This document shows positions 3,350 to 64,000 of a stretch of 64,000 nt of DNA, in pieces (the stretch's first letter is position 1; each line of letters begins with the position of its first letter). The notes beneath the pieces were generated by a model. It worked only from the letters and a program-made list of their open reading frames with translations. It had not been told where the DNA came from and ran no database searches. Both the position numbers and the translations under genes were made by a program. Origin of the DNA: a virus; the IMG/VR virus record IMGVR_UViG_3300049460_000134, positions 32,001-96,000 of that record; one strand, 5' to 3'.

Positions 3350-3981
3350 TGCTCGATTACCGCGAAAGCGCACCTCGCATCGCAAGGATCGCGAACGCTG
3401 TTGCATACCAGCTCTCCGGATCTGGTGTGCATTCCATGACCAGGGACGACGTTGAGCAGGAGCTTTGGATCGTCTGGTGCATGGCGCGCGACAAGTATGA
3501 TCCCTCGCTCGGTGTTCCCTTTGAGGCCTTCCTCATCAACGGGATCAAGATGCACATCCGATCGAGCATCAAGCGCAAGGCATTCAAGCGAGCTGCCGAA
3601 GAGTGGGGCAAGAGCCTCGACGCTCCAGTCAGCAAGGATGAAGGCGGCGCGACGGTCGGCGAAACGATCGCGGAAGACTTCAGCTTCATGGATGACATCG
3701 AGGCTGAAGGACAGTTCCAGTTCATCGTCTCGCGTTTGACAGAGCGCGCCGCGACATTCGTTCGTCTGCTGCGCGACCAGCCGCAGATCCTGATCGATGC
3801 ACTGAAAGCTCTCGAAGAGCGCTCCAACTACGCAAAGGAACTTGGCGTCAGCAACATGCTGTTCCGCCAGGTGACGACGTCCATGATTTTCAAGCTGATG
3901 GGATGCGATCGTCCAGAGCGCACGCGCATCCTCGCTGAAGTCCGTCAAGTGACGGAGAAAGAACTGAGGAAGCTCGCATGA
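3349..3981 (+). CDS. Sigma-70 family RNA polymerase sigma factor-like protein
   Basis: Region 2-like DDVEQELWIVWCMARDKYDPSLGVPFEAFL; SLDAPV motif. Confidence 0.7.
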   Translation: MLDYRESAPRIARIANAVAYQLSGSGVHSMTRDDVEQELWIVWCMARDKYDPSLGVPFEAFLINGIKMHIRSSIKRKAFKRAAEEWGKSLDAPVSKDEGGATVGETIAEDFSFMDDIEAEGQFQFIVSRLTERAATFVRLLRDQPQILIDALKALEERSNYAKELGVSNMLFRQVTTSMIFKLMGCDRPERTRILAEVRQVTEKELRKLA

Positions 3982-4502
3982 CAATTCCAAGCTTCGCTCC
4001 TGGCTGTTTTGGTTCTGCAATGGGCTTTGACGATACGGCGCCGATCTGCGTGGTCTGCACTTTCCGCGAGACATGCAAGCCGATGCACGAGGCCAATCTC
4101 GTCAAGCTGCGCGAGGCGTGCGGTATCAAGAAGGTCGAGCGACGCAAGAAGGTTACGGCTGATCCCGCTCAGGAAGGCGGCCTGACTGTGCCGAAGAAGA
4201 CACTGGAGCTGGTCGACAAGTTCGAACAGGCTGGTCTGAGCGTCACGACCGCACTTGCTGAAGGCAAGAACCCCTTCGCGCAGACAGCCATGCACTTCAT
4301 GACGATCGCCTCACATCTGCTGCTCCGGCTCAACCGGCCGCTGCGCCAGGCGGATCTCTGCATGGCGTTGCAGACGAAGCTGCACTGGACCAAAGGCACC
4401 GCAGACAGTCACGCACGTATGGCAATCCAGGCGCTCGAATATGTCGGCGCAGTGCGCGTCACAGAAGGCGGCGTTAGATTGGCAGGTGTGAATGAGGGAT
4501 AA
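3978..4502 (+). CDS. Hypothetical protein with N-terminal Cys cluster and C-terminal winged-helix-like segment
   Basis: C-x12-CxxC-x4-C; WTKGTADSHARMAIQAL resembles the C-termini of 34678 and 55666. Confidence 0.5.
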   Translation: MTIPSFAPGCFGSAMGFDDTAPICVVCTFRETCKPMHEANLVKLREACGIKKVERRKKVTADPAQEGGLTVPKKTLELVDKFEQAGLSVTTALAEGKNPFAQTAMHFMTIASHLLLRLNRPLRQADLCMALQTKLHWTKGTADSHARMAIQALEYVGAVRVTEGGVRLAGVNEG

Positions 4503-31837: not shown

Positions 31838-32490
31838 ACACTGAACGCAAATCCAATTACATGCACACTTCGAACGGCAAGAAATACTGGCCGCTCGATC
31901 CGCGCCCTGAAGAAGTCCACCTCGAGGTCGTGGCGCACCACCTGGCAACGCGTGCTCGCTACAACGGCGCAACGCAGCATCCGGTCTTCAAGTCGCGCAT
32001 CCTTTTCTCGGTGGCTGAACACTCGGTTTTGGTGTCTCGCTTCATCGAGGAAGAGCTTGGTCGCCCTGATCTGGCGCTCGAAGGTCTCATGCACGACGGC
32101 TCCGAAGCGTTCAACGGCGATCTCATCCGGCCGCTGAAGTATGACGACAGCTTCCGTGCGCCATTCCAGCGCGTCGAGGTTCTGAACGAGAAGGCCAATG
32201 CTCTGCGCTTCGGTCTGGTCTATCCCTATCCGGAAGAGATCAAGATCGCCGACGAGGCTGTTACCGCGGCTGAAGTCAATCAGATCATCGTCAAGGCGCC
32301 TGAAGATGACTGGAGCTTCGGCAAGCTGCATGACGACACGCGCGTCGCGCCATACGAGATCGAAATGCTCCTGCCCTACGAGGCCAAGGTGCTCTTCCTC
32401 GATCGCTTCTATGAATTGGCTCGTCGGCGGAAGGTTGAGGGATATGAAAGATATTTCGACGCCTCGCTTGCATCCCAATCTGCTGCGTGA
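31834..32490 (+). CDS. HD-domain 5'-deoxynucleotidase (YfbR-like)
   Basis: RYNG, SVAEHSV, LMHDGSEA, PLK, KIAD. Confidence 0.8.
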   Translation: MNTERKSNYMHTSNGKKYWPLDPRPEEVHLEVVAHHLATRARYNGATQHPVFKSRILFSVAEHSVLVSRFIEEELGRPDLALEGLMHDGSEAFNGDLIRPLKYDDSFRAPFQRVEVLNEKANALRFGLVYPYPEEIKIADEAVTAAEVNQIIVKAPEDDWSFGKLHDDTRVAPYEIEMLLPYEAKVLFLDRFYELARRRKVEGYERYFDASLASQSAA

Positions 32491-34677: not shown

Positions 34678-35493
34678 ATGAAGAACGCACAAATGGCAGG
34701 AAACGTAGTCAACGGCGTGTCGGCAGAAAGCATCGATGATCTCCTCGAAGATCTCGACCTGGGCATCGAGCCGGCGCGTGGCGAAGAAATTGAAACGATC
34801 GTCGCCTCGGAAGAAGTGATCGAGGACGTCGATACGATCGTCGAGGAAGTTGTTGCCGCTGACGTCTCCGGCGACGACGATCTGTCCATCGACGAACTCG
34901 AAATGGGCATCGAGCGCGCTCAGGGCTACCAGGAGCAGGACGGCGGTGAGCAGCTCGCCGGCAATGCGACTGAGACCGTAGCTTCGAAGAAGGCAAACGC
35001 ACCGAAGGCAGACTCGACTGTCAAGACAGTGAAAGCGCCGCGTGCATCTACGCCGCGTCAGCCGCGCGACGTGTCTGCGATCGCCGCTGAAGTCTTCGTC
35101 CTCGAAGGCGACGCCTCGCAGATGTCGGCTGACGAACTCGAAAGCAACAAGAAGGCGGTGATCGACGCTGCGCCGACGCAGAAGAAGATCGCCGAGAAAT
35201 ACGAAAACCTCTTCATGTCGCTCTCGGTCGGCAAGCAGCCTTCGACCTACGTCGTCCAGGCGTTCAAGTTCCTGGACCAGAAGAAGACGCTGTCCTCGAC
35301 GGATATCGTCGCGATGCTTAAGGGCTCCTACAAGCAGGGCACTGCTCAGAGCCAGGCCGGTCAGATCATGAAGCTCTTCGAGGCGACGAAGATCGCGACG
35401 CGGACCAAGAACTCGCTGGAGCTGAACGACAACTCGGTCATCGCCGGCAAGCTGCGCGACATTCTCAACAACGCGAACAAAGCCGCCGCGTAA
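34678..35493 (+). CDS. Acidic N-terminus plus putative winged-helix DNA-binding protein
   Basis: C-terminal YKQGTAQSQAGQIMKLF motif similar to 3978 and 55666. Confidence 0.5.
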   Translation: MKNAQMAGNVVNGVSAESIDDLLEDLDLGIEPARGEEIETIVASEEVIEDVDTIVEEVVAADVSGDDDLSIDELEMGIERAQGYQEQDGGEQLAGNATETVASKKANAPKADSTVKTVKAPRASTPRQPRDVSAIAAEVFVLEGDASQMSADELESNKKAVIDAAPTQKKIAEKYENLFMSLSVGKQPSTYVVQAFKFLDQKKTLSSTDIVAMLKGSYKQGTAQSQAGQIMKLFEATKIATRTKNSLELNDNSVIAGKLRDILNNANKAAA

Positions 35494-51788: not shown

Positions 51789-52145
51789 TCAATTAGCCTC
51801 TGGTGATATGGCAGGTTTTCTTTTCCTCGAGCCCTTCAGTTTCAGCCGTGGCTCAGGGCGCAACTGGATATACTCTTCCAGCATCATGAGCATTTCAGCA
51901 GCCGCGGCGGCCGCCACGAACGCAGCTCTTGCCTCTTCCGGATCAACCTTGCCTTCCATAGCGGCCAGGCACACCAGTTGCGCGTTCTGCCACTCCTCGC
52001 CGCGGTCATCTTCAGGCCAGCGGAAGACCAGGCTGTAAGCCAGGTCGCCAAGGGTAGCGTGCCGGCGCATGTTCACGCCTTTGCGCTTCTCGATGCAGAC
52101 GATGGCATCGCGGATGCTCATGTGCTCGCCAATGTATTCAGCCAT
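51789..52145 (-). CDS. DUF982 family protein
   Basis: WP....W..A..VCLAAMEG...PEEARAAFVAAA..A; family typical of Rhizobiales. Confidence 0.75.
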   Translation of the reverse strand: MAEYIGEHMSIRDAIVCIEKRKGVNMRRHATLGDLAYSLVFRWPEDDRGEEWQNAQLVCLAAMEGKVDPEEARAAFVAAAAAAEMLMMLEEYIQLRPEPRLKLKGSRKRKPAISPEAN

Positions 52146-52299
52146 ACGCATTACCTCCAAGGGAGTCCAAGGTAGGCGTCACATGTTACGAATCCAAGAG
52201 CCATATTAGAGTCGCCTAAAAGAATCTTCCGAACATAGCCGCGAGCTTCCCAGCAGCGAGCATGCGATAACAAATCATCAAAGACGAAGAGAGAAAGAG

Positions 52300-52665
52300 A
52301 GCTAACAGTGAGATCGCCATGTGAACGATGAGGGTAGCTACCTCGACCGCAAATAGCTCGGCTCCGATTAAGCTCGTCACGCTCATACGGTAGGCAGACC
52401 GCTACAATAGAGGATGGGATAGATATGCGCCCTACCCTCCGGCTGCTGAGTCCGCTTTGTCGCCCACTCGCTTAGAGATCCGGGGTGAAATCAATCCACC
52501 TGTATGCCTTGCGCCGAACCCTTGACCCCGGCAGGCGCATTGTCACAGCGAGCCATCGCTTGATTGCTCACGATCCACTCCCTACGCGGTGAAGAATGTA
52601 GCCTCGTTGTGAACCGAAGGACCGCTCGGAGTGAGATCAATGAACAATCGCCGCAAATAGCCACT
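52300..52665 (+). ncRNA. Candidate large structured non-coding RNA
   Basis: ORF-free region after a promoter motif, with several long-range stems and internal direct repeats. Confidence 0.45.
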
Positions 52666-52728
52666 TGGACGCCGTTCTCAAGTGTCGTATTCAGTAATTA
52701 TTGACTGACAAACACGAAAGAGCGAGCT

Positions 52729-53578
52729 ATGAAGCGCAAACCGACAAAGACCATAGAATTCACAGCGGCTGAGCACCGCGTCATCACGGCAATCGTCAAC
52801 GCTATCCAGTTCGGCGGCGACGTCGTCGTGGCAGCTCAGCGCGCCGAAGAGCGCAACAACGATGTGAAGCCGGTCGCTGAAGGTTCCGAGGAGGAACTAA
52901 TCATCTGGGGTAACATCACCGATCTCTTCCAAAAGATCCGGCTCGCCTGAAAGGAACAACAATGACCAAGGAACAAATCGCCGAGATCTGGGACCGGTAT
53001 TTCGAGATCGTCAGCGAGGACGATGATGACGTCGTGCCGGTGCATGGCGAGCTGGCTGAGAAGCTCAAGGCTCTGATCGCTGAGGCGCCATACCAGGGCA
53101 AGGATCCGATGTTCTGCACTGGCTTCTGGACATACGAGGACGGCAACCGTGCCTTTGAGATCAGCCTCCACCTCAACAGCGGCGAATCTGCCATCTGCGA
53201 CGCCGACGTCCCTGATGTGGATAAGCGCAGCGATCGCCTCGACAAGCTGCGCTGGGCCCAGATCCGCGCATTGCTGACGGTGGACGAGGCAAACGCCCTA
53301 GTCGAGTGTGCTGAGGCAATGGACCAGTTCGCCGACGAATGCGAGTCTCAAGGCAACGAGGTGTCAGCAGACGAGCTTTGGACCAAGGCAGGACTCGTGC
53401 AAAGCATGATGGCGTGCGCTCCATGATGACGGCAGCATATCAGACCAAGCTCCTCAAAGACCGTCGCACCTTGGCGCAGAGTAAGGTAAAGGCGTTGGCA
53501 GAGGGCGACGCCAAGCGAGCCGCTTACGAGAAGTGGATCGCCGAGCTCGACGAACAGATAATGGCTCTAGGAGGCTAG
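52729..53578 (+). CDS. Three small hypothetical ORFs
   Basis: 52729-52950, 52962-53426 and about 53423-53578. Confidence 0.45.
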
Positions 53579-54051
53579 GTATGATTGGCACAATTGAGCT
53601 CATGGCGTTCTTCTTCGTCGGCGGACTGATGTTCTGCACCGGCGTTCACTTCGAGCGCTGGCAGGTTCGCCAGGAGCAGAGGAGAGAATGGAATGACCGC
53701 TGATCCACGCCTAACCCGATCATTCGGCATCAAGTGGCCGCGGATCTTCCCTGGGACTATCTGATCCCTGGGTGTGTCACTGCCATCAAGAAGAGGCGCG
53801 AGCAAGCTGGGCACGACTTCATCCGGCTCTACGAGGCCTTCTACAAGAGCCGATAACAGTTTCAGGTAGGGGATCTGTCCGTGCTTCCCCTACAGCGCGC
53901 AGCCGGCGGTCGTGCTACCAAACAACACCGGCAGACTGCAGCCGTTCTCTTTCGGCGGTGATGCAGCATAGAGAGCCACGCCATACCCCAGGCGTGTGAA
54001 GTAAAGAGCGACTGTTGGCTCTTTCTCTCTATAGCCAGGTAGAGCCGTGGC

Positions 54052-54519
54052 ATGCCATATCTCTCGCAGAGGGAGATACAGATGATTGACCAGGCGAAAT
54101 ACGACAAAGAGCTCGAGGAATGGCTCGAGAATACACCGACCTTGGCTCACGAGCGCCGCGCACTCGATAAGCTTAGAGCTGCCTACCAGGCGGTATTAAG
54201 CGATCCGCGGTTCAAACTCTCCCCTTGGCTTGCAAATGTGGTCCGCAGCGACGCCAATAACTATCTGTGGCTCGATATTCGCACGCATGCCTGGAACGAG
54301 AACGACGATGCGCAGTGGGTGATGAACTACGACCTTGGGCTCGGCGCCTATTTTCAATGGGTGAGAAACGACCAGGACCACCAAGTGGTGCGCAGCCGGA
54401 TCGACGAGAAGGACGTAATCGACCTCGCCATTCAGTTCTGCCTGAAAGCGCTGGAGAAAGGATGGCTACCGCCACGGTCCTTGACAGGCCAGGCCACGGC
54501 ACCACTCACAGGCGATTAA
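54052..54519 (+). CDS. Hypothetical protein
   Basis: ORF with plausible SD. Confidence 0.45.
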   Translation: MPYLSQREIQMIDQAKYDKELEEWLENTPTLAHERRALDKLRAAYQAVLSDPRFKLSPWLANVVRSDANNYLWLDIRTHAWNENDDAQWVMNYDLGLGAYFQWVRNDQDHQVVRSRIDEKDVIDLAIQFCLKALEKGWLPPRSLTGQATAPLTGD

Positions 54520-55030
54520 CAGCCAATCTCCACAACCTCATCCGCTTAACATTAGACCGCCCTAATGTTAACTCGAAACCGCGCAGTTAACATCCAATCG
54601 TTTAGTGAACATCGCGCCATGCTTAATAGTTTAACCTTAGTTTAACACTAACTTACCCTCAAATGACCGAAATCGAATTTTTCCCTCGAATGTTAAACTC
54701 CCCAGAGCACAACCTGCTGACAACGGAATCGCTATAGAAGCTCACACAATCGATCCGCTCACGTCTAACGATACAGACAGCGCTCTCTATAGCGGATGAA
54801 GCTCAGCAACGCTCTCAGCGTCAAACAGCACACAGGTCTCGTCGTATCTAAACGCTATAGAAACCAGTGCAGAAAACATTCACAGCAACACCGGCTAGAA
54901 ACAGCTCAATCCATAGAGAGACAGCGACCAGCATAGAGAGCCAATAGACCTAGAGAGAGGCTATAGAGCACATAAGCGCATAGCGGGGAGAGAGCATAGA
55001 GAGGTCCGCGGTATAGAGAGGGAGCTATTG
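54520..55030. repeat. AT-rich non-coding region with TTAAC and (CT)ATAGAG repeats; possible origin or packaging region
   Basis: Clustered ttaac/gttaa at 54515-54700; repeated atagag(ag) at 54910-55020. Confidence 0.4.
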
Positions 55031-55368
55031 CAAAGAGTCGATGGTGGAAATGCGTCGGCGCCGATCCTGTCTCGCCAGCCCAATCCACGCCTCGCCTCAC
55101 CCATCCTGTGCACAGCCGACTTAACCCTTTCGCAACCCGACGCGCGACGCGCTACTGTCATTCTGTGACGAGCAGGTGCTCACACGCAGCGAATGATCTG
55201 GGGCTGGGGCATTGGATCATCACCTTAGAGGCGGTCTTCACAGGATCGCCTCTCTTTTTGACCTCCAGGAAAATAGGAACCACGCCAACTCGCCGTCGCA
55301 GACGCCAAACCGTAGGGTGCTCCTAATTGCGGACGTGCCTGATGAGCCGGACCTTAGCCTCTCTATAG

Positions 55369-55440
55369 CCGCGGCATGCCACCTTAAGCCGGAGTGATCC
55401 TAGGATGACCGAGGCGTGCCTTGGAAATCCTCGGCGAGAC
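55369..55440. repeat. 10-bp phased CC(NN)GG array
   Basis: CC at 55369, 55379, 55389, 55399, 55409, 55419 and 55429; five of the seven are CCNNGG. Confidence 0.75.
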
Positions 55441-55453
55441 CTTCTTTCCGAGT

Positions 55454-55511
55454 CCGTGTTCTCACTAATATAATCTTCTTATCTACGTATTATCTATTAG
55501 TGAGAACATGG
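55454..55511. repeat. 17-bp inverted repeat around a 24-nt AT-rich loop
   Basis: ccgtgttctcactaata ... tattagtgagaacatgg (16/17 match). Confidence 0.75.
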
Positions 55512-55665
55512 CTCCGGATATGTCCGGAATGTGTCCGTGGCTCTCCATACGCCGGAACGAGCCTAAACGTGCCGTGAAAAGCCGATTTCTATCCTAAAAT
55601 CAAAGACTTATGTTCTTCTCATCGAAAGCGAGCGCACTCGAAGCGCGTCACAGAGGAGAAAGAGC

Positions 55666-56346
55666 ATGCAGTCCACGTCCAACCAGGCACCGGCCACGTC
55701 CAAGAAGATAGAGGCCTACGACTTCAAGCAGGCGGCACAGAGCCATACATCTGACGAGTTGGCGGCGTTTGCCTTGCGTGTCGAGCAGGCGTTCACCGCA
55801 AGAGCGCAGTTCGAGCTCGACCAGACGAGCAACGCCGACGAGCCGATCCAGAAGAAGCTCGCCACCGCACGCAAGTCCTTCTCTATGCCGGACACACTGC
55901 GCGGCATGATCGAACTCAACCTCGATCCGGAGTTCATCAACGGCACGCTCTCCAAAGACGGCAAAGGCAAGCGCCTGAACGTCTATGCCATCAAGAAGGC
56001 GCAGCAGATCGTGGACTTCATGCTCGGCAAGGACAAGCTGCCGGAGGTGCTGATCGCCTGCCTCAAGTCGATGGTGGCATTCAAGGCGGCCGGCGAGAAG
56101 TTCACGGCAGAGTTTTCCAAGGCTGCAGTCTCAGACAAGATCAGGCTCGCGCCATCTGCCGGCCTTAAGCTCCTTGTCAGGCACAACGTCGATAAGGCTA
56201 CCGCCTCGACGCAGGCAAGTAGTAATATGCGCATTCTGCAGGCTCTTGGTCTGGTGAAGAACGTAGGCAGTGCACGCTCCGGTGTGTATGAGCTGACGGA
56301 TACAAAGCAGGCGGTAGCGCTTGTGGATCTTCTGAGGTCAGCCTAG
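55666..56346 (+). CDS. Putative DNA-binding protein, paralog of 58471-59055
   Basis: Shared blocks NVYAIKKA, LKSMVAFKAAGEKFT and MRILQALGLV. Confidence 0.6.
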   Translation: MQSTSNQAPATSKKIEAYDFKQAAQSHTSDELAAFALRVEQAFTARAQFELDQTSNADEPIQKKLATARKSFSMPDTLRGMIELNLDPEFINGTLSKDGKGKRLNVYAIKKAQQIVDFMLGKDKLPEVLIACLKSMVAFKAAGEKFTAEFSKAAVSDKIRLAPSAGLKLLVRHNVDKATASTQASSNMRILQALGLVKNVGSARSGVYELTDTKQAVALVDLLRSA

Positions 56347-56379
56347 GCCTCGCCGGCTAGGCGAAACTGCAGAGGGGAA

Positions 56380-56419
56380 GAGGCGGTAGGCACCCAAACC
56401 TACCGCCTCGCTTTGTTTT
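56380..56419 (+). terminator. Intrinsic terminator
   Basis: gaggcggtagg/cctaccgcctc stem plus T-rich tail. Confidence 0.7.
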
Positions 56420-56540
56420 GGCTATAGAGAGACCAAGGATATCCGTGGCAGCGGCCATTAGGAACCGGTGGGGTCCAAGGGACCGGCCGCTAGAAACCAC
56501 GCATGTCCGCTCCAGGTGTAGGGGAAGGATTGGGTTGATG

Positions 56541-56586
56541 CCGCGGCGATCCTAGGCGATCCGTGGCAGGCCGCGGCAAACCTTGG
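56541..56586. repeat. 10-bp phased CCNNGG array
   Basis: ccgcgg 56541, cctagg 56551, ccgtgg 56561, ccgcgg 56571, ccttgg 56581. Confidence 0.8.
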
Positions 56587-56707
56587 CTGAGGCATCGCCT
56601 CCCCTCTCCTATCCGTGCCTCGCCGGAGTGATCCAGAGATTGCCGATTGCATGCCTCTCTCTATCATCGTATCAGTAATTATTGACTGACAAACACAAGA
56701 GAGACAC

Positions 56708-57040
56708 ATGAAGATCATTACTGAAGCCGAACTGACGAGCGCTATCGAAGACTGCCTGTGCGAAGTGTTTGAGCTCGTCGTAGGCCAGCGCGCATATCTC
56801 GAAGTGCTCACGAATGAGACGGACTACGTCGGCACGCTCATCGAGTATGAGACGGACCTTGGCTTTCACAACGCGACAAACGTCTTCGATCTGGACCTAG
56901 AGACGCGCAAGTATGCCTTTGAGCGCGCAGTGACTGCCGGCGATGCGAAACAGTCGTTCTTTGCATATGACAGCCTATCTGATGCGAAAGCACACGCCAC
57001 GGCGCTGCTATTCGCAAAGCTCGACGGCTACGAAGAATAG
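56708..57040 (+). CDS. Acidic hypothetical protein
   Basis: ORF after an operator; GAGAG-type SD. Confidence 0.55.
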   Translation: MKIITEAELTSAIEDCLCEVFELVVGQRAYLEVLTNETDYVGTLIEYETDLGFHNATNVFDLDLETRKYAFERAVTAGDAKQSFFAYDSLSDAKAHATALLFAKLDGYEE

Positions 57041-57282
57041 GCCATAGCGAGCGTCGCTGACCGCGGCGCTTTCATTTGGCTTGTCGAGTGCCGTGGCGAT
57101 CCTTGGAACCCGCCGAGGGGCAGTCCACGCCACACCAGGCCGGTCCAGTCCTCATCCGGCCAGGCCAGGTCCACGGCACGTCAGGCCGCCTCACCCTGCA
57201 AGACCCCTGCAATGCCGATTTGATCGCCTTTAGCGACTTCGCTAAAACAATAATTAGCGAAACACGAAAGAGAGACACGCGC

Positions 57283-57606
57283 ATGACCAACGAACTCGTA
57301 AAGACCGCCGCCATTGCTCTGCTCAATCATCTGTCCACGATGAACGATGATGCCTTTGAGCGCGTCGATACCGACTACATCGACTATTCGCCTGACGCGC
57401 ACTTCACAGTCGCCTTGTTCGACGCGATCGAGCCAGCCAAAGACCGCAACTACTTCGACATGATTACCGAGTTCACCTACGAGCTCGCCAGTGTCACCAA
57501 GAGCGATGACGATCGTGCCGACGTCGATCGCTTCTGCACCAAGCTCTTCTCCGCCCTCCTCCGTTTCGAAATGAGCGAGAACATCCAGAGTCTCGACGCC
57601 TCATAG
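57283..57606 (+). CDS. Acidic hypothetical protein lacking Gly and Trp
   Basis: 107 aa; no GG on the coding strand. Confidence 0.55.
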   Translation: MTNELVKTAAIALLNHLSTMNDDAFERVDTDYIDYSPDAHFTVALFDAIEPAKDRNYFDMITEFTYELASVTKSDDDRADVDRFCTKLFSALLRFEMSENIQSLDAS

Positions 57607-57682
57607 CGCCGACAACATCCATTTGAACGCCTTTAGCGAATTCGCTAAATATTTAAGTGTCAACAACGTGAGAGCGAGACAC

Positions 57683-57853
57683 ATGCAAACGATCATTCCA
57701 GCGCCGACCGTCAGATACCACATAAAAGAAATGACGCCGCGCCAGTCGAACTTCGCAAGCCAAGCCCTGTCGCTTGCCAAGGAGACTGCCGCCTTCATTG
57801 CCTTTATCGTCTTCGTCTGTGCTGTCATCGCCGTGTGCGTGATAATCCACTAA
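57683..57853 (+). CDS. Small membrane protein lacking Gly and Trp
   Basis: C-terminal hydrophobic helix; followed by terminator 57860-57902. Confidence 0.45.
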   Translation: MQTIIPAPTVRYHIKEMTPRQSNFASQALSLAKETAAFIAFIVFVCAVIAVCVIIH

Positions 57854-58018
57854 GTCGAGAGCCAGGTCCGGACACCGCCATGTCACCGGACCTGGCTTTT
57901 TCATTGCCTGAAACCATGGCATGCCACGGTTGCCAAAATCAGGAACCGAGGCTATTCGTGCCAAGGGGATCCAGTCCGGCGAGTCCCGCTGGCGATGCCT
58001 GTCAATATATGAGCGCTC

Positions 58019-58083
58019 GCTACATCGCTCGACGCTTCATTAGTCGATGCTACATTACGCGCTGCTGCATTAGTCGACGCTTC
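58019..58083. repeat. Degenerate 15-bp tandem repeat (about 4 copies)
   Basis: gctacatcgctcgac / gcttcattagtcgat / gctacattacgcgct / gctgcattagtcgac. Confidence 0.6.
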
Positions 58084-58164
58084 GAAAGCGCACGCTCTCA
58101 CACCTCTTGCTCAATTAGCGCATGCTCACAGACACGCGCTCGCGAGCCTGTCCGTTTCCGCACC

Positions 58165-58203
58165 AAAAACAAAGAAAAGCACACGCTTGTTTAGCGTGTG
58201 CTT
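58165..58203 (-). terminator. Intrinsic terminator for the minus-strand genes
   Basis: aagcacacgct/agcgtgtgctt stem preceded by an A-tract; the stem contains no GG or CC. Confidence 0.65.
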
Positions 58204-58221
58204 GTATCTGCTTTTGCTGTT

Positions 58222-58401
58222 TTATTCAGCGCTCATGCGCTCGCGTTCTGTGGTGCGCACATAGTCGCGCATGTCGAAATACTCGCTTTCATAGTCGCGC
58301 TCTAACAGCGCAACGTCTGAGGTGTTAGCAAACGACATGCTAAGCGCTTGTCTGAAGTTGTCGCGCTCGCGACGCTCTTTCTTTGTCATGTGTATGCGCA
58401 T
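58222..58401 (-). CDS. 59-aa charged protein not in the ORF track, lacking Gly, Pro and Trp
   Basis: MRIHMTKKERRERDNFRQALSMSFANTSDVALLERDYESEYFDMRDYVRTTERERMSAE*; GAGAG SD; lies between an operator and a terminator. Confidence 0.5.
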   Translation of the reverse strand: MRIHMTKKERRERDNFRQALSMSFANTSDVALLERDYESEYFDMRDYVRTTERERMSAE

Positions 58402-58470
58402 TATCTAAATCTCTCGTTGGTGTTTCGTGTGAGTGTCAGTCAATTAAGACTGACACTCGTTTCTGTGGTG

Positions 58471-59055
58471 TTACGCGCTCAGCTTCGCTTCAATGAGCGC
58501 AAAGATTGCGTTGTTGTTGACTGCATATTCAGTCTTGTTTTTCTGCTCAATCAGATTGAGCGCATGCAGTGCGCGCATGCTCATGTTTGCATGTCGTGCA
58601 TAGTTCGCGAATTGCGTGCGACGCTGATAGATGAGCGCTTTTTTGGTGTCGTCGATTTTCGCGCTCGCGTTCAAGCTGTCTTCAATGTCGCGCACAGTGA
58701 AGTTTACATTAGCGTTCTTGAAGTTAACAAGCGTGCGCAACACTTCTTCGAGATTGCTCTTGAGGTGTTTTACATCGTCGCGCGTTGCGAACTTGAGCAA
58801 GCTATCAACACTGTTGATTGCTTTCATGCACATATACTTATTTTCGACGCGCTTGTCGTGCGAAAACACCTCAGAAACGTTGCTCTTCTTGAGCAACGCA
58901 GCAACGCTTTTCTGCGATACTGTGAGCGTTACATCAGTGATGAACTTGAGCGATGCAGCGCATGCACCATTTTTCAGTTCATCGTCATAGCGCTTGTTCA
59001 AATCTGCAGCGTATGCGTTGATCTTGACTTCGTTGTTCTTCGTTACTTCAGTCAT
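58471..59055 (-). CDS. Putative DNA-binding protein, GG/CC-depleted paralog of 55666-56346
   Basis: 194 aa with 1 Gly, 0 Pro and 0 Trp; alignable blocks with 55666. Confidence 0.65.
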   Translation of the reverse strand: MTEVTKNNEVKINAYAADLNKRYDDELKNGACAASLKFITDVTLTVSQKSVAALLKKSNVSEVFSHDKRVENKYMCMKAINSVDSLLKFATRDDVKHLKSNLEEVLRTLVNFKNANVNFTVRDIEDSLNASAKIDDTKKALIYQRRTQFANYARHANMSMRALHALNLIEQKNKTEYAVNNNAIFALIEAKLSA

Positions 59056-59612
59056 TTGCTTGTCTTTCTTTCGTTGTGCTGTTTAATCAGCGTTGTTAAC
59101 ATGTTCACTAAACACTTATTCGCAAAAACAGTCAAGCGTATCAGTCAAAAATAACTGACATTTTGCGAAAATAATTCGATGCACTCTATTTGACACATAG
59201 ACGCGCACTGACGCGCGTTGTGTGTCGTGCGCTGTCATCTATCGTTTTTGTGCGTCGCTGCATCCCTCGTGCAACGTCGTGACAATGCGCGCGTGATTGA
59301 TTCTCTAGTGTCGCGTGACAGTGTTGCTAGCGTGAGTTTTCGAGGTGAAAGCGAAGTCTTAGAAAAAAGTGCGTCGCTCGAAAGGGATGCCTCCTGCTGC
59401 GCCGACACTTCCCGGCTCGGACTACCTGTCCTCATTCCCGGCCTGGACGGACAGCATAGGTGCGGTATGCCGAGGCCCCTCCCCTGCTCTCCCCTCTACC
59501 AGACCGCCCAGATTCCCGGATCCCGGACTACCTATCCTTATGTGTCAGTAACTATTGACTGACATTCGACGCGCGGCTACAGTCGCCTCATCATCAACGC
59601 AGGATCTCTCCT

Positions 59613-60542
59613 ATGGAAATCACTAACTCCGGCAACCTCCAGGTCAGAACGCACGAGAACGGCGTTCAGGAATTCCTCGAGGCCCCGCTCAGCATGTCGC
59701 TGTTCAACGACTTTGAGGACCGGCTGCTGACACGCCACACGGACGGCCGCTACGTCTTCAGGGACGATCGCGGCAACGTGCTGATCTACATGAGCACTGG
59801 CCTCTCCGCGCTCGACGGCTTCCAGCGCGTCGGTCTGGAGCTCAAGAGCTACTACGACGTGGAGCGCAACCTCTACCAGACCGCCTTCCCTCCCCTCTCC
59901 CTGACGATGAGCGACGTTCTCGTGCCGAACAGGCTTCTCCAGGAGCTGACATTCGTTCCGACCGAGGAGCCGTTCGTCTACAAGCGCACTGCTGGTCCGT
60001 TTGGCTTCCCTGTGCTCGATCTCTTCGGTCAGCTTGCCGACAGCATTCCCCTCGAGGACGCCGTAACAGCAGCCCCTGGCTATCTCAGCGGCGAGCCGAC
60101 CGAACAGGAGCCTGTCACCGCCGGCTCGCTCTCGAATGCGGACGGCAGCTTCAAGATTGACCTGGACGAAGGCGCGATCGAAATTAGCGAAAGCCAGAAT
60201 TCGCTAACTCGCGTTTCCGTTCACTATGACGATCGCCGCGACCTGGTCTTCGTCGGCTATGACGTCTTGGATCACATCGACGACGACGGCGGCGCCCTGG
60301 CGCTCGAGATCGATGGCAAGGCGATCGTGCCGGCCTTTGGCTGGACGCACTACACCTTCGAGGCGCTCGACAATCCGCTTGTGGACGAAGAGGCGCCGCT
60401 TGCTTCTGTCGCGAAAGAGCGAATTAGCGATCCGATCTGCGAAGGACCGGTCTTTCCGGATGGCAGCTTCACCAAGGATCAGATCGAAGAGGCTTTCCGC
60501 TTCCTCGTCGCCGACAAGCTCACCGATCGCAAGGCAGCCTGA
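59613..60542 (+). CDS. Acidic hypothetical protein
   Basis: Long ORF after an operator, with AGGA SD. Confidence 0.55.
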   Translation: MEITNSGNLQVRTHENGVQEFLEAPLSMSLFNDFEDRLLTRHTDGRYVFRDDRGNVLIYMSTGLSALDGFQRVGLELKSYYDVERNLYQTAFPPLSLTMSDVLVPNRLLQELTFVPTEEPFVYKRTAGPFGFPVLDLFGQLADSIPLEDAVTAAPGYLSGEPTEQEPVTAGSLSNADGSFKIDLDEGAIEISESQNSLTRVSVHYDDRRDLVFVGYDVLDHIDDDGGALALEIDGKAIVPAFGWTHYTFEALDNPLVDEEAPLASVAKERISDPICEGPVFPDGSFTKDQIEEAFRFLVADKLTDRKAA

Positions 60543-60665
60543 GCATGGACGCTGTCTCGCTCGCCGGCGATACGACTGACCTGGTGGTGAAGTCCATTGA
60601 CTTCACCTTGGTGCTCATCGTCGTGATCGCCTTCATGCTCCACGATACCAAGAATAGGATCTGAA

Positions 60666-60950
60666 ATGACGGACACCGTCAAAGGACTGCCCATAAAGGG
60701 CTACAAGAACGAGCAGCCGATCCACCTGGTCGAGCTGGTCAACGAGAACAAGGTTCTCGAGGAAATGGTTCTGCGCCAGATCGACCGGCACGTCGCACTC
60801 GGCGCCGAGGTCAATGGTCGTGACGTGCAGATGGCTCGTGGTCTGATCGAGGATGCGTTCATGCGCCTCAACCGCGGCGTATTCCAGCCGCAACGTCTCG
60901 AAGGCGAGCTCGGCGGGGCTGTCCTTGCTGATATGCTGGGAGCTGCCTGA
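60666..60950 (+). CDS. acb2: Acb2-like anti-CBASS cyclic-nucleotide sponge
   Basis: IKGY, N..K.LE and R....A....E.AFM.L.R...QP pattern, and about 90-aa size, match Acb2 as recalled. Confidence 0.65.
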   Translation: MTDTVKGLPIKGYKNEQPIHLVELVNENKVLEEMVLRQIDRHVALGAEVNGRDVQMARGLIEDAFMRLNRGVFQPQRLEGELGGAVLADMLGAA

Positions 60951-61103
60951 TGAGCGTCGTCGCCCTACTCTACGTCTGGCTGGCGCTCTGGCTCCTGATC
61001 GGCATCTTTGTCGCCGGTCTGGTGCTGCTCTTCCTGCGGTTCATCTGGCGAACCTATCGCTTTATCCAGAAAGAGCGATTTCGCGATTTAGCGAATGCAC
61101 GAT

Positions 61104-61131
61104 AAAAGAAAGGGCGCTTAGAGCGCCCTTT
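61104..61131. terminator. Bidirectional terminator between convergent units
   Basis: aaagggcgct/agcgcccttt. Confidence 0.7.
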
Positions 61132-61132
61132 G

Positions 61133-61414
61133 TCATTTCTGCGTCTTCTTCCAGGCCGCGAAGCACTCCTCGAGGAGTTCCTTCATCGACATGCCTCTCG
61201 CGGTCGCGGTCATCTTGAACTCCCGGCTGAATGCGCCGTCCACCTTGAAGTTCAGATCTTTGTAGATCTTCTTGACCTTCATGTTGTCGGCCACGAATGG
61301 CGTCTCGGCGGTATCGGCGATCGTCGCCAGCAGCTTGAACTCGTCGGCCTTCTTGCTTGGCGGCTTGCCTACCGGTGCCTTGGTAGCTGCCGTTTCAACT
61401 GGTGCCTTTGTCAT
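61133..61414 (-). CDS. Ribbon-helix-helix centromere-binding protein (ParG-like)
   Basis: Flexible N-terminus plus DLNFKV...EFKMTA..RGMSMKELL; coupled to parA. Confidence 0.7.
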   Translation of the reverse strand: MTKAPVETAATKAPVGKPPSKKADEFKLLATIADTAETPFVADNMKVKKIYKDLNFKVDGAFSREFKMTATARGMSMKELLEECFAAWKKTQK

Positions 61415-62055
61415 GCTGCTTCCTCCGCGGCCTGGTTGATCCTGGTGACGATCTCGCTGGCGAGAGCCTCAGCGCGCTCGTTGAGCGACGGATACTTGGT
61501 CTCGGAGATCGCAAAGCCGGTGTTTTGAGCGGACTGATACCCTGCCCTGGTGCCTAGATCGGTATCGGCGACGTCGAAGCCCTGCTTCTTGATGAGCGCT
61601 GCTGCCTCGCGAACCGCGGCCTCACTGTCGGCCGTCTTGTTGAGGACGAAGAAGATCTTGTCTCGGCTGACGCCTTTGGCCGCGAGCTCCTGGGCAAAGC
61701 CAAGCTGCGGCTTCAGATCGTCCACGGTCACGCCGGTCGGCACGATGACTTGGTCGGCGACCAGGGCAGCCTCGAGCGAGGTCTGAACAGAGTCCGGCGC
61801 GCCATCGACGATCAGGCAGTCGGCCGTCTCATTCTTCAGCTTCTTGACCGAGTTGAACGGCTGCGCCTCGATCTCCGGCTGGATCACACCGCGGATGCGT
61901 GCCGCCACCCAATCAACCGAAGTGAGCTGGTTGGTGTTGAAGTCGCAGATCTTCACCGACCACTCAGCCGATGCGTAGGTTCTAGCCATCAGCCGAGCGA
62001 GCGTGGACTTGCCGACGCCGCCTTTCTGGGACAGGCACGCGATTATCAGGGTCAT
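61411..62055 (-). CDS. parA: ParA Walker-type partition ATPase (type Ib)
   Basis: SQKGGVGKST deviant Walker A, IVDGAP; short, with no N-terminal HTH. Confidence 0.9.
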   Translation of the reverse strand: MTLIIACLSQKGGVGKSTLARLMARTYASAEWSVKICDFNTNQLTSVDWVAARIRGVIQPEIEAQPFNSVKKLKNETADCLIVDGAPDSVQTSLEAALVADQVIVPTGVTVDDLKPQLGFAQELAAKGVSRDKIFFVLNKTADSEAAVREAAALIKKQGFDVADTDLGTRAGYQSAQNTGFAISETKYPSLNERAEALASEIVTRINQAAEEAA

Positions 62056-62056
62056 G

Positions 62057-62104
62057 GTCGCTAATTCCCGTTTGAACGATTTCGCTAAATCGTTACTTAG
62101 CGGA
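62057..62104. promoter_or_regulatory. TTAGCGA(A)-type repeats upstream of parA (candidate parS/autoregulatory site)
   Basis: tcgctaa, ttcgctaa and ttagcg immediately upstream of parA; the same unit recurs at 61074, 63731, 60181, 60421, 57230, 57633, 13108 and 9046. Confidence 0.5.
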
Positions 62105-62239
62105 TTCGGGTTAACGAGACACTACCAAATTTGAAGGGAGAGGTTGGCGCAGCCCATTTGTGTCAACAACGAAACAACAAACGAGAGAGACCGGGATCTC
62201 AAACGAGAGATTTCTAGGGCTGCGCCGGGGTATTTAGTT

Positions 62240-62734
62240 TCACGAGCTGGTGGTTTTGTCGAGGTTCTTTCGGGACACAAGACGCATCTTTTTCTCCTCC
62301 TGGATGGACTTCATGAAGCCCCAGAGGAAGCCGTAGTCGAAGAGCACCGGTCGGCCTTCGTAAAGACCCCAATTGCGGTCGTGGCAGTCGCTGAAGAAGT
62401 GCGGCACGACGGATGGAATGTCCTTGGGGTCTATCCATTCGCAGCGCTTCTGGATGAGGATTGAGCCCTGGCGTGAGATTCCGCAGCACGGCGCCAGCCA
62501 GTGCGCGTATGGGCTCTCACAGAGATAATTCCAGACCTTGTGCTCGATGACGTTGCAGAAGGCTGCCTGATCGGACGGCCGCTCGACCTTGATGACGAAC
62601 TCGCTAGGCTGCCAGGAGCTCTCATAGACGGCGCGATGCCTGCCGCCGCCCAGGTATTCGCCGAGCATGAAGCCGTTAAACTCCTCCTGGATCTCACGAA
62701 GGAAGTCATACATGGGTGTAGGAGAGTTGCTCAT
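62240..62734 (-). CDS. Minimal protein-kinase-like protein
   Basis: LGGGRHRAVY Gly-loop, VIK, E, DCHDRN catalytic loop, DYG. Confidence 0.65.
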   Translation of the reverse strand: MSNSPTPMYDFLREIQEEFNGFMLGEYLGGGRHRAVYESSWQPSEFVIKVERPSDQAAFCNVIEHKVWNYLCESPYAHWLAPCCGISRQGSILIQKRCEWIDPKDIPSVVPHFFSDCHDRNWGLYEGRPVLFDYGFLWGFMKSIQEEKKMRLVSRKNLDKTTSS

Positions 62735-63105
62735 AGCGGCTCAAACTCCGGCATATCGAAGATTTCCTCGTAGATCTCCGGTGTCTGGGCGTCGAGCGCC
62801 TCCCAGGTCAACCGCATGGCGTCCTGGTTACACATCGTCTCGGTGCAGCAGGTGGCGATATCGACCTTGTGCTTCTCAGCCACGAAGCCGGCGAGGTCAT
62901 TGCCACGCATCATCAGATCGAACCGATCGACCTTGGCGTTGCGCTTGGTTCGCGCAATCGCGAAATCGCTATTTACCGAATTCGTTGGATCGCTAGGTCC
63001 AAGCCCATAATCGGAGTCTCGAAATATGCAGTGCGTCGGCGTGCTCCCATGGGGCTCCCGATCGAGGAACCCCTTGAGCTGGCCTTTAAACCAGACTTGC
63101 ATCAT
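62731..63105 (-). CDS. Hypothetical protein
   Basis: Coupled ORF. Confidence 0.45.
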   Translation of the reverse strand: MMQVWFKGQLKGFLDREPHGSTPTHCIFRDSDYGLGPSDPTNSVNSDFAIARTKRNAKVDRFDLMMRGNDLAGFVAEKHKVDIATCCTETMCNQDAMRLTWEALDAQTPEIYEEIFDMPEFEPL

Positions 63106-63677
63106 GCCGCTTCACTCGACGGGACGGAGCCGATGACCGCGAAGAGCTTCTCAGCCAGGTCTTTGCGCGCAGCTTCCGGCGACAGACCGCGCGCCAGGCC
63201 GTCGTTCTTGATCTTGGCATGCGCATAGGCCGGATTGTAGGTGTCGAATTCGAACTTGGAGGGGCCAGCGAGAGGATTCTCGATCTCCAGCACCAGAGCA
63301 TCTTGTTCGCGCCAGTAGCGGCCTTGCTCGCGACGCACGGAGCCAAAGACGGAGTAGGAGCCCTTGGGGCGCGCGTTGTCGCTCATGATCGGGATGATAT
63401 CGCCGCCAAACTTCTCCTCGAAGGCATTGCCGATCTCGCCGAGGATCTCGCGCACCTGCCATTCACGGCCATTGATGGTGACAAATTCGAGCTTGCCGGC
63501 CTGAGTGAAGACCTGGTCAGCGGTCAATCCCAGGTAATCCATGGCAATCTTGCGCAATGGAAGGCCGTCATCGGCGAGCTCATGCCCGTAGGCGGCGTTG
63601 ATGATTTCAGCGGCCGTGGTTTTGCCGGAAGTCGGGTTGCCGCAAAGGGCGATCTTGCGAGGGAGGTTTGACGACAT
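63102..63677 (-). CDS. Deoxynucleoside monophosphate kinase (T4 gp1-like)
   Basis: ALCGNPTSGKTT, PLRK, VREILGEIG. Confidence 0.75.
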   Translation of the reverse strand: MSSNLPRKIALCGNPTSGKTTAAEIINAAYGHELADDGLPLRKIAMDYLGLTADQVFTQAGKLEFVTINGREWQVREILGEIGNAFEEKFGGDIIPIMSDNARPKGSYSVFGSVRREQGRYWREQDALVLEIENPLAGPSKFEFDTYNPAYAHAKIKNDGLARGLSPEAARKDLAEKLFAVIGSVPSSEAA

Positions 63678-64000
63678 AGAAAAGCTCCTGCGTTTGTCAG
63701 TCAATATTTACTGACACTACAACAGGAGCTGATTTAGCGGAAGCACGAATTAGCGAATTCGCTTAAGCAGGATCGATTTCCTCAATGAAACCGGCCTGTT
63801 TGGCCTTGCGCACGAGCTTGGAAAGCTTGGCGTTGTCCTTCAATAGCTCGTCGATCGAGTCCAGCAGGAACTTTTCCGTGACAGCGGCAAGACCGGTTGT
63901 GTTGAAGAAGTGGATCGGGTCCACAAGGCGACGTTCTGCGGTCATGCTGCTTTCCTCTGTGCTGCAAAGATGGACCAATCGAAATCCTGGTTGGCCGGCA

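Follow-up and report, generated by a model that had tools for sequence, protein, structure and literature searches.

Glycine replaced mainly by asparagine in the GG/CC-poor member of a distant paralog pair from a Rhizobium-type siphophage or phage-plasmid

Two convergent genes about 2 kb apart, designated here A and B, were analysed in a window of 64,000 nt (positions 32,001 to 96,000 of IMG/VR record IMGVR_UViG_3300049460_000134), which is part of a Rhizobium RHEph10/RHph-type siphophage or phage-plasmid. The two are very probably distant paralogs, of which B, coded in DNA almost free of the dinucleotides GG and CC, was forced to give up glycine, proline, and tryptophan and mostly took asparagine where glycine had been conserved. 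Both ORFs were verified at the coordinates and on the strands given in a first-pass annotation of this DNA. The features of the region are as follows.

55666..56346, + strand: ORF A, 226 aa, the ordinary-composition member of an unnamed two-part family with a helical N-terminal part and a predicted C-terminal winged helix
58471..59055, - strand: ORF B, 194 aa, by profile comparison a distant paralog of A, with one Gly and no Pro or Trp
57992..59383, no strand assigned: GG/CC-poor zone, a whole expression cassette with promoter, B, small ORF, terminator, and short repeats
58222..58401, - strand: small ORF of 59 aa, highly charged and without Gly, Pro, or Trp, in the B cassette, downstream of the B gene
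59138..59160, no strand assigned: palindromic operator-like motif GTATCAGT-N7-ACTGACA in the promoter region of B, repeat family D2
58177..58203, - strand: terminator-like hairpin that ends the B cassette, its stem without GG/CC
58019..58093, no strand assigned: iteron-like repeats, five 15-bp tandem units at the far edge of the zone, family D1
57185..57781, + strand: half-zone of 597 bp with no + strand GG and 47 CC

The first-pass annotation had proposed A and B as related on the basis of three short aligned blocks. BLASTP gave no alignment between the two proteins. The Smith-Waterman score was 60 against 34.8 +/- 5.3 for shuffled sequences (none of 500 shuffles reached 60), a result that alone is borderline because the pair was chosen from many. 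The profile evidence settles the homology. When the B family was aligned with the A family in hhalign, a probability of 96% and an E value of 4.8e-9 over 179 columns were obtained, and with larger alignments the match was nearly full length (E 4.3e-9, 176 columns). Furthermore, the B gene of RHEph10 was matched directly by A of the window in tblastn (E 3e-6), and the predicted folds are alike. According to these comparisons, A and B are true, distant paralogs, old duplicates of one uncharacterised phage protein. Blocks 2 and 3 of the earlier alignment are in profile register (F139=F112, A184=A156, L194=L166), while block 1 was placed four residues out of register, as the profile pairs A108 and not A112 with A79.

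That A and B are unrelated and alike by chance, or that the true gene is the antisense ORF 58348-59154(+), is scarcely credible: BLASTP finds no match between them, and the window does contain an open antisense frame of 268 aa, on the strand that RefSeq annotates in RHEph10, but the profile and tblastn matches and the common fold and best PDB chain contradict the first, and the antisense frame has only 64-109 residues in L002, L005, and L009 and is broken in several loci, whereas the sense frame of B is open in nine of nine. Codon differences between B and its L001 counterpart (50 synonymous, 31 non-synonymous) indicate that B is under purifying selection. The RefSeq gene call at the B locus of RHEph10 is likely on the wrong strand.

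The family comprises about 350 representative clusters at 50% identity, on contigs of up to about 100-120 kb that include Rhizobium siphophages and phage-plasmids. The convergent order of A and B was seen again in six relatives with both genes, including B1VFA. Nothing meaningful was found for A or B in Pfam or PHROG, no Pfam family was at or near the cut-off for these two or for 10 long relatives, and no match was obtained in a PDB sequence profile search or when the region was compared with phages in megablast. A metagenome scan gave two loci only, one of them a duplicate, and further scans, for P0160, P0161, and ORFs 3978 and 34678 singly, were unproductive. A larger family, with the products of 3978-4502 and 34678-35493 as third and fourth members, had also been suggested. 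It was abandoned, as hhalign gave E values of 0.0078-0.27 and probabilities of at most 5% over 16-49 columns, and only a short recognition-helix-like motif aligns with A and B. The two ORFs match other PHROGs (3616, and 5235 with 3932). The product of 3978-4502 has four invariant Cys of its own near the N-terminus, and its homolog in RHph_Y2_11 is located downstream of a sigma-factor gene.

The composition of the two types differs sharply. B-type proteins have 0-1 Gly, no Pro, and no Trp, while A-type proteins have 12-20 Gly and 4-14 Pro. All B orthologs examined are in GG/CC-free DNA; all A orthologs are in ordinary DNA and have kept their glycines, so the comparison of Gly, Pro, and Trp usage bears out the earlier view that the copy in GG/CC-free DNA was reshaped. 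Both Gly-to-Asn pairs named in that view, G143 to N116 and G195 to N167, are correct, and the pattern is wider, with G101 to N72 and the columns of G55, G121, and G201 in addition. Substitutions were counted among 146 A-type (ordinary) and 24 B-type (Gly/Pro/Trp-poor) representatives. Gly is present at column 170 in 142 of 145 A-type sequences, against Asn in 20 of 24 of B-type; at column 176 in 140 of 145, against Ser in 14 and Asn in 8; at column 119 in 119 of 145, against Asn in 11; and at column 74 in 118 of 146, against Asn in 15. Conserved Gly is thus replaced mainly by Asn, and also by Ser and Asp. In DSSP assignments of the AlphaFold (AF2) models, G55, G121, G143, and G195 are two residues past helix ends, and so are N116 and N167 in B; the replaced glycines as a whole occupy such sites after four helix ends as well as two hairpin turns. 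Three members of the B family (P0004, P0005, and the RHEph10 copy) kept one Gly each, in each case at a different Gly column. Gly is taken as the ancestral state on the basis of the A-type majority and these rare retentions, the tree being unrooted.

A mere effect of the lower G+C content of the zone, with more AAY codons, is a very improbable cause of the asparagines. The zone has indeed 45-50% G+C against about 58% in the flanks, and B-type proteins are richer in Asn overall, but Asn fills 54 of 96 B-type cells at the four best Gly columns compared with roughly 6-10% of these proteins overall. Moreover, Pro columns in B-type proteins were filled by K, A, T, and E, not by Asn, and the rare retained glycines lie on the same columns.

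The same replacement was found in a second lineage. P0160 has no Gly, Pro, or Trp but is A-like, with N, D, and N at the positions of three glycines in its sister P0153. By its sequence relationships it is a second, independent Gly/Pro/Trp-free member that arose inside the A lineage; in the FastTree tree, a shared odd composition may draw B-type rows together. Asn as the main stand-in for conserved Gly is therefore seen both across the family and in this second lineage.

The zone that encodes B is the only such stretch in the 115.5-kb genome. Positions 58201-59350 have 7 GG and 4 CC in 1150 bp. The odds ratio of GG/CC is 0.03 in the zones of nine loci, compared with 0.79 in the flanks, and GC and CG are raised in compensation. 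The zone was kept at nine related loci with 547-1348 bp free of any GG/CC, and B of the zone-bearing relatives is only 26-47% identical. In the phage of the window and in L001, GGTG(T) partly escapes the ban; at 58252-59344 the GGTG/CACC context holds 7 of 7 GG and 4 of 9 CC. The other CC fall in the terminator region (58147-58158) and within ATCCCTCG (59262-59269), a motif that relatives have kept. The ban extends over the promoter, the spacers, the junctions between codons, and the stems of terminators, and judged by these long stretches and their non-coding parts the ban acts on DNA. No GG/CC-free or Gly/Pro/Trp-free phage cassette was found described in the literature searched.

The content of the cassette is simple, with B and one or two small ORFs only. 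In relatives, reading of the DNA by eye revealed small open frames in the interval from B to the terminator of the cassette, and equivalent GCGCGC-type hairpins are present. Promoter-like hexamers TTGCAT/TTGACT-17-TTTAGT, also recognized by eye, are conserved upstream of B in eight loci. Further copies of the palindromic D2 motif are at 56669, 58433, and 59542. The neighbouring half-zone encodes two + strand ORFs without Gly or Trp, but with Pro kept, and relatives retain part of it (476 bp in L004, 292 in L006, and 285 in L001). Its one-strand ban does not fit a simple duplex-DNA reader.

The AF2 models of A and B have pLDDT of 87.6 and 90.0, respectively, with helices and strands in the same order. 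Residues 110-226 of A were superposed on winged-helix proteins in VIA-align, with 2qvo_A as the best chain (Z 9.6, rmsd 3.3, 83 residues) and many further wHTH chains at Z 7-8. For residues 93-194 of B, the best chain was also 2qvo_A (Z 6.0, rmsd 2.8, 81 aligned), and many other winged-helix matches are common to both; these comparisons were made with predicted models, and Z of 6-9.6 is a range that shows a common fold only. Foldseek against PDB gave weak winged-helix rows only (best E 0.08). The winged-helix-like character proposed for the pair is thus upheld by the models for the C-terminal half of each protein, and both are predicted to have a winged-helix DNA-binding fold. Their C-terminal part of about 100 residues resembles wHTH proteins such as AF1382 (2qvo), RosR, ArsR/SmtB, MarR, PadR, and HxlR, with three helices, the recognition helix being followed by a hairpin wing. 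In contrast to those regulators, A and B have no Pfam, PHROG, or PDB sequence match, and they have additional elements, namely a C-terminal helix and, at the N-terminus, about 100 residues of helical structure whose fold is unmatched. No significant family profile match to MarR, ArsR/SmtB, PadR, or HxlR was obtained in the Pfam and PDB profile searches. The invariant residues of the recognition helix are T-Q-A-S-S in B against R-H-A-x-M-x-x-R in A. According to its fold and the promoter-like sequence, B may be a sequence-specific DNA-binding regulator, and, given the different invariant residues in the two recognition helices, it would have another specificity than A. Candidate targets of A and B are the CCNNGG arrays, the palindromic operator, and the TTAGCGA repeats. 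This role of B together with a cause for the GG/CC ban is proposed tentatively, at somewhat less than even chances.

The explanation that we prefer starts from the genetic code, in which Gly is coded by GGN, Pro by CCN, and Trp by TGG. A is the copy in ordinary DNA, and B the copy in a cassette that is complete in itself and has a host-type promoter, where these codons are unusable because GG and CC are excluded on both strands. Asn is the next-best residue after Gly for left-handed backbone angles, and the fold of B very probably survives because the critical glycines were replaced mostly by Asn, otherwise by Ser or Asp. By the ban, the cassette would escape a putative factor that reads GG/CC on duplex DNA, and the likely setting would be its expression ahead of the remaining genome or separately from it. 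In this reading, which is possible but falls a little short of probable, the bare GG/CC step on DNA is recognized by some factor inside infected or lysogenic cells, large siphophages and phage-plasmids hide one small regulatory cassette from it, and the constraint has been so strong and so old that the same winged-helix protein was rewritten free of Gly, Pro, and Trp at least twice.

Avoidance of short words by phages is, to our knowledge, genome-wide, statistical, and met by synonymous codon choice. The zone shares with restriction-site avoidance and PAM depletion the selective loss of a short word on both strands, but here the word is lost absolutely, within a local stretch of about 1-1.4 kb out of 115 kb, and at the price of changed amino acids. 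The PAM of type I-F CRISPR systems is CC, and PAM depletion was set aside as the cause because a ban confined to one locality gives no protection to a genome that has the word everywhere else, unless entry or exposure is sequential.

The rival that survives best, although doubtful, is that the ban marks the DNA that is first exposed or expressed, as in the first-step transfer of T5, and that this DNA escapes a GG/CC-dependent host defence or an early nuclease of the phage itself. The first-step-transfer (pre-early) DNA of T5 has no EcoRI sites, and the two cases would be alike in a small early gene unit that avoids an otherwise exposing word. In the present case the avoided word is a dinucleotide, and therefore the encoded proteins themselves were rewritten; for the zone, a position at a DNA end and an entry in two steps are conjectural. 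The host-type promoter of the cassette and its position apart from the long + strand operons agree with early exposure, and so does a gene annotated as T5 A1 protein in relatives, but this gene is distant from the zone, about 40 kb in RHph_Y2_11. Neither A1 nor A2, the pre-early genes of T5, was found in the cassette. The ends of B1VFA are fixed, with a direct terminal repeat of 3,605 bp (PMC12509600), which would suit such an order of entry, but the start of the B1VFA record is arbitrary and lies inside an operon. When contigs L001 and L006 were compared for a physical DNA end near the zone, their ends mapped about 200 bp apart and not to a common site. The genome record also has a 127-bp terminal repeat, which appears to be an overlap left by assembly and not a physical end.

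It is improbable that the phage modifies its own DNA at words containing GG/CC and that the cassette must stay unmodified. The tolerated GGTG context resembles the edge of a longer target word, and 7-deazaguanine modification of the DpdA type, with short target words, would explain a zone free of a guanine word. However, no TGT/DpdA gene (PF01702) was matched in the complete 115.5-kb genome, where the controls were matched, and no C5, N4/N6, or D12 methyltransferase was matched in searches with the families PF00145, PF01555, and PF02086. None of these genes is annotated in RHph_Y2_11 either.

A constraint on RNA or translation, for example to evade a ribonuclease that cuts at GG or to do without tRNA-Gly, tRNA-Pro, and tRNA-Trp, is given as little chance as self-modification. 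The half-zone, with GG banned on the coding strand only, and the Shine-Dalgarno-like leaders without GG (GAAAGA or GAGAGA) are in agreement with it. The main zone, however, lacks GG and CC on both strands, including promoter DNA upstream of any transcript, and its spacers, terminator stems, and codon junctions are equally free of them, while a cause based on tRNA would not ban cross-codon or non-coding GG/CC.

Taken on the preferred reading, that a cassette is hidden from a reader of GG/CC on duplex DNA, the pair would be a natural experiment in maintaining a fold with neither glycine nor proline. A DNA rule of kilobase scale deprives a folded and conserved protein of three amino acids, and the controls are its paralog of ordinary composition, at a distance of 2 kb, and about 146 ordinary relatives. 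So clean a case is rare because selection on short words is usually met by synonymous changes. The replacements suggest a rule for protein design, in which Gly past helix ends or in hairpin turns is exchanged for Asn, then for Ser or Asp. The family itself, which has no Pfam family, is defined here. As B was reshaped and kept so for long, the ban is argued to be a hard functional constraint, and such a constraint would point to an undiscovered reader of the GG/CC step in phage-host biology.

Two convergent genes lie in the window where the first-pass annotation had placed them:
55666-56346, + strand: ORF A, a 226-aa protein of ordinary composition
58471-59055, - strand: ORF B, a 194-aa protein stripped of glycine, proline and tryptophan (G/P/W)

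Three small ORFs on the + strand and one on the - strand are located between them. The two proteins are paralogs, as had been proposed. No alignment of A and B was obtained in BLASTP. Their Smith-Waterman score is 60, compared with 34.8 ± 5.3 for shuffles, none of which (0/500) scored as high, but this excess is only suggestive because the pair was picked out of many. The sets of homologs are small (seven for B, six for A), and the profile-profile comparison of the families reached a probability of 96% and E 4.8e-9 over 179 columns, or E 4.3e-9 when sequences of seven IMG/VR loci were added. Also, tblastn with ORF A as the query found the B gene of Rhizobium phage RHEph10 directly (E 3e-6, 33% identity over 94 residues). 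The convergent arrangement is kept in six relatives holding both genes, including the distant B1VFA. The second and third alignment blocks suggested originally agree with the profile register, while the first is four residues off.

On sequence grounds, B is a real gene and not an antisense frame. Its frame is open in nine of nine related loci, and the antisense frame is shortened to 64-109 residues in three of them; B of the window and of related locus L001 differ in 50 synonymous and 31 non-synonymous codons. In RefSeq, the RHEph10 gene is called on the strand antisense to the B homolog (gp097, NC_034248.1 99105-99785; L008 5965-6645). This is probably an error, as the conserved, A-family-homologous strand is that of B.

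A four-member family with ORFs 3978-4502 and 34678-35493 was not recovered (hhalign E 0.008-0.27, probability ≤5%, and still ≤5% for 3978-4502 with a 15-sequence profile). The short piece of both that aligns with A/B is the recognition-helix region, so a common fold type is possible. ORF 3978-4502 has four invariant Cys close to the N-terminus and matches PHROG 3616 (function unknown). Its homolog in phage RHph_Y2_11 comes directly after the gene for a phage sigma factor of the sigma-70 family, so the ORF may encode an anti-sigma-like partner that binds zinc.

AlphaFold2 models of A (pLDDT 87.6, pTM 0.82) and B (pLDDT 90.0, pTM 0.85) have an identical order of helices and strands. The C-terminal winged helix proposed for both proteins is present in the predicted models. 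In an exhaustive VIA-align search, residues 110-226 of A superposed on winged-helix domains, with 2qvo_A at Z 9.6 and RosR, MarR, ArsR, ORC/Cdc6, and MukF winged helices at Z 7-8, and residues 93-194 of B superposed on the same chains (2qvo_A, Z 6.0). Foldseek gave weak rows only (best E 0.08), nearly all of them winged-helix proteins, and the ESM Atlas search gave unnamed clusters at the top, followed by wHTH regulators (TM about 0.35). The structure searches gave no match for the roughly 100 N-terminal residues, and A and B had none in Pfam, PHROG, and PDB sequence searches.

B-type proteins contain 0-1 Gly and neither Pro nor Trp, against 12-20 Gly and 4-14 Pro in A-type proteins of the same loci. 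The replacement of Gly by Asn, noticed at two positions in the initial reading, extends to the conserved Gly columns of A, which are mostly Asn in B. In the merged alignment, with 13 B-type proteins, Asn stands at G55 in 10, G101 in 11, G121 in 7, G143 in 7, and G195 in 12, and the G201 column has 5 Asn and 8 Ser. A lone Gly is kept in three B-family members, each in another column (G101 in metagenome protein P0004, G143 in RHEph10, and G195 in metagenome protein P0005). According to DSSP on the models, G55, G121, G143, and G195 are two residues past helix ends and G99/G101 and G201 are in hairpin turns. In the B model, N116 and N167 are at corresponding places. Left-handed backbone angles favour Gly at such sites, with Asn usually next in preference.

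A family search with a profile of all 24 sequences, with representatives taken as 50% identity clusters, found 350 representatives at E ≤1e-3 and 246 at E ≤1e-10. The members sampled are unnamed and lack Pfam domains. Eleven newly listed representatives are wholly free of Gly, Pro, and Trp. Columns were compared between 146 ordinary and 24 G/P/W-poor domains.

Conserved glycine columns in ordinary and G/P/W-poor domains
Column 170: ordinary Gly 142/145; G/P/W-poor Asn 20/24
Column 176: ordinary Gly 140/145; G/P/W-poor Ser 14, Asn 8
Column 119: ordinary Gly 119/145; G/P/W-poor Asn 11
Column 74: ordinary Gly 118/146; G/P/W-poor Asn 15

Pro columns changed to K, A, T, or E in the G/P/W-poor members. 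In a FastTree tree built without the Gly/Pro columns under comparison, G/P/W-poor rows are nearly all in one clade, although shared composition may inflate this grouping. Metagenome proteins P0160 and P0153 form a pair apart from it. P0160, 215 residues long and free of Gly, Pro, and Trp, shares 32% identity with A and 20% with B; its recognition helix is A-type, and tblastn matches only A genes of Rhizobium phages. The three Gly of P0153 are N, D, and N in its sister P0160. At the protein level, P0160 is read as a second independent case of Gly replacement, which would imply that the A-type gene of another phage lies in a separate GG/CC-free zone of its own.

The zone around B, 57992-59383, is almost without GG and CC and is the sole such stretch in the whole genome. 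The B gene is inside such a zone in nine of nine related loci, with runs of 547-1348 bp wholly without GG or CC and G+C content of 45-50%; B1VFA is among them though its B is only 26% identical. By a simple independent-position estimate, the chance of the 1348-bp run of locus L002 (45.5% G+C) is about 1e-64. The GG/CC odds ratio is 0.03 in zones vs 0.79 in flanks; no other dinucleotide is depleted, and GC and CG are raised, compensating for the loss. Besides B and one or two small, charged ORFs, the zone contains promoter-like hexamers that are conserved, a palindrome resembling an operator, a leader without GG, short repeats, and a terminator of GCGC type. As the zone spans the entire cassette, the ban acts on DNA, beyond codons. 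Residual GG/CC in the zone of this phage and its closest relative is nearly all GGTG(T)/(A)CACC, and the single Gly codons of B (GGT then G) and of the RHEph10 copy obey the GGTG rule. This motif, perhaps tolerated as a context, perhaps selected, has about ten copies in 1.1 kb (58252-59344; also in L001 and L007) and none in L002-L004. A literature search found no description of such a cassette.

The palindrome GTGTCAGT-N7-ACTGACA (21-23 bp; 56669, 58433, 59138, and 59542) is directly upstream of four transcription units, two within the zone. It is free of GG/CC and overlaps the -35-like hexamer TTGACT. GG/CC-rich segments with repeated CC..GG motifs border the zone and a neighbouring half-zone (57040-57200, 57860-57990, and 59390-59540), with up to 72% G+C and 11 GG and 18 CC per 100 bp; the zone boundary in relatives has 26-37 GG per 200 bp. 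The half-zone, 57185-57781, has 597 bp with no GG and 47 CC on the + strand, and this one-strand ban fits no simple model. Similar runs are in L004 (476 bp), L006 (292 bp), and L001 (285 bp). Further features are:
58019-58093: iteron-like tandem repeat of five 15-bp units at the far zone edge, past the cassette terminator (different short repeats at this position in relatives)
57283-57606, + strand: half-zone ORF without Gly or Trp, Pro kept
57623-57853, + strand: half-zone ORF without Gly or Trp, Pro kept

GTAC occurs at 0.0 per kb in zones and in flanks of several kb on either side of every locus (9 loci; window 52001-64000, L001-L009); the genomes as a whole may be avoiding a restriction enzyme that cuts at GTAC.

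The source virus record is 115,555 bp long (window at 32001-96000) with G+C content of 57%, and its two ends are joined by a 127-bp repeat taken as an assembly overlap. DNA polymerase III alpha of this virus shares 78% identity with the enzymes of RHph_N1_10, RHph_Y2_11, and RHEph10, all phages of Rhizobium, and 66% with that of B1VFA. The genes parA, parB, and repC are present in this phage group, which has been discussed in terms of phage-plasmids (PMC7969092; PMC12509600). Rhizobium genome assemblies include 116-119 kb contigs with close relatives.

Most likely, A and B are predicted sequence-specific DNA-binding regulators with differing targets, given that A and B do not share the invariant residues of their recognition helices (T182, Q183, S185, and S186 in A; R154, H155, M158, and R161 in B). 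TGT/DpdA and common DNA methyltransferase families were absent from the genome. An attractive candidate reading is that the GG/CC-free cassette would have a T5-like first-entry role: the relative B1VFA has fixed DNA ends and a 3.6-kb terminal repeat (PMC12509600), and an A1-like gene is annotated in RHph_Y2_11.
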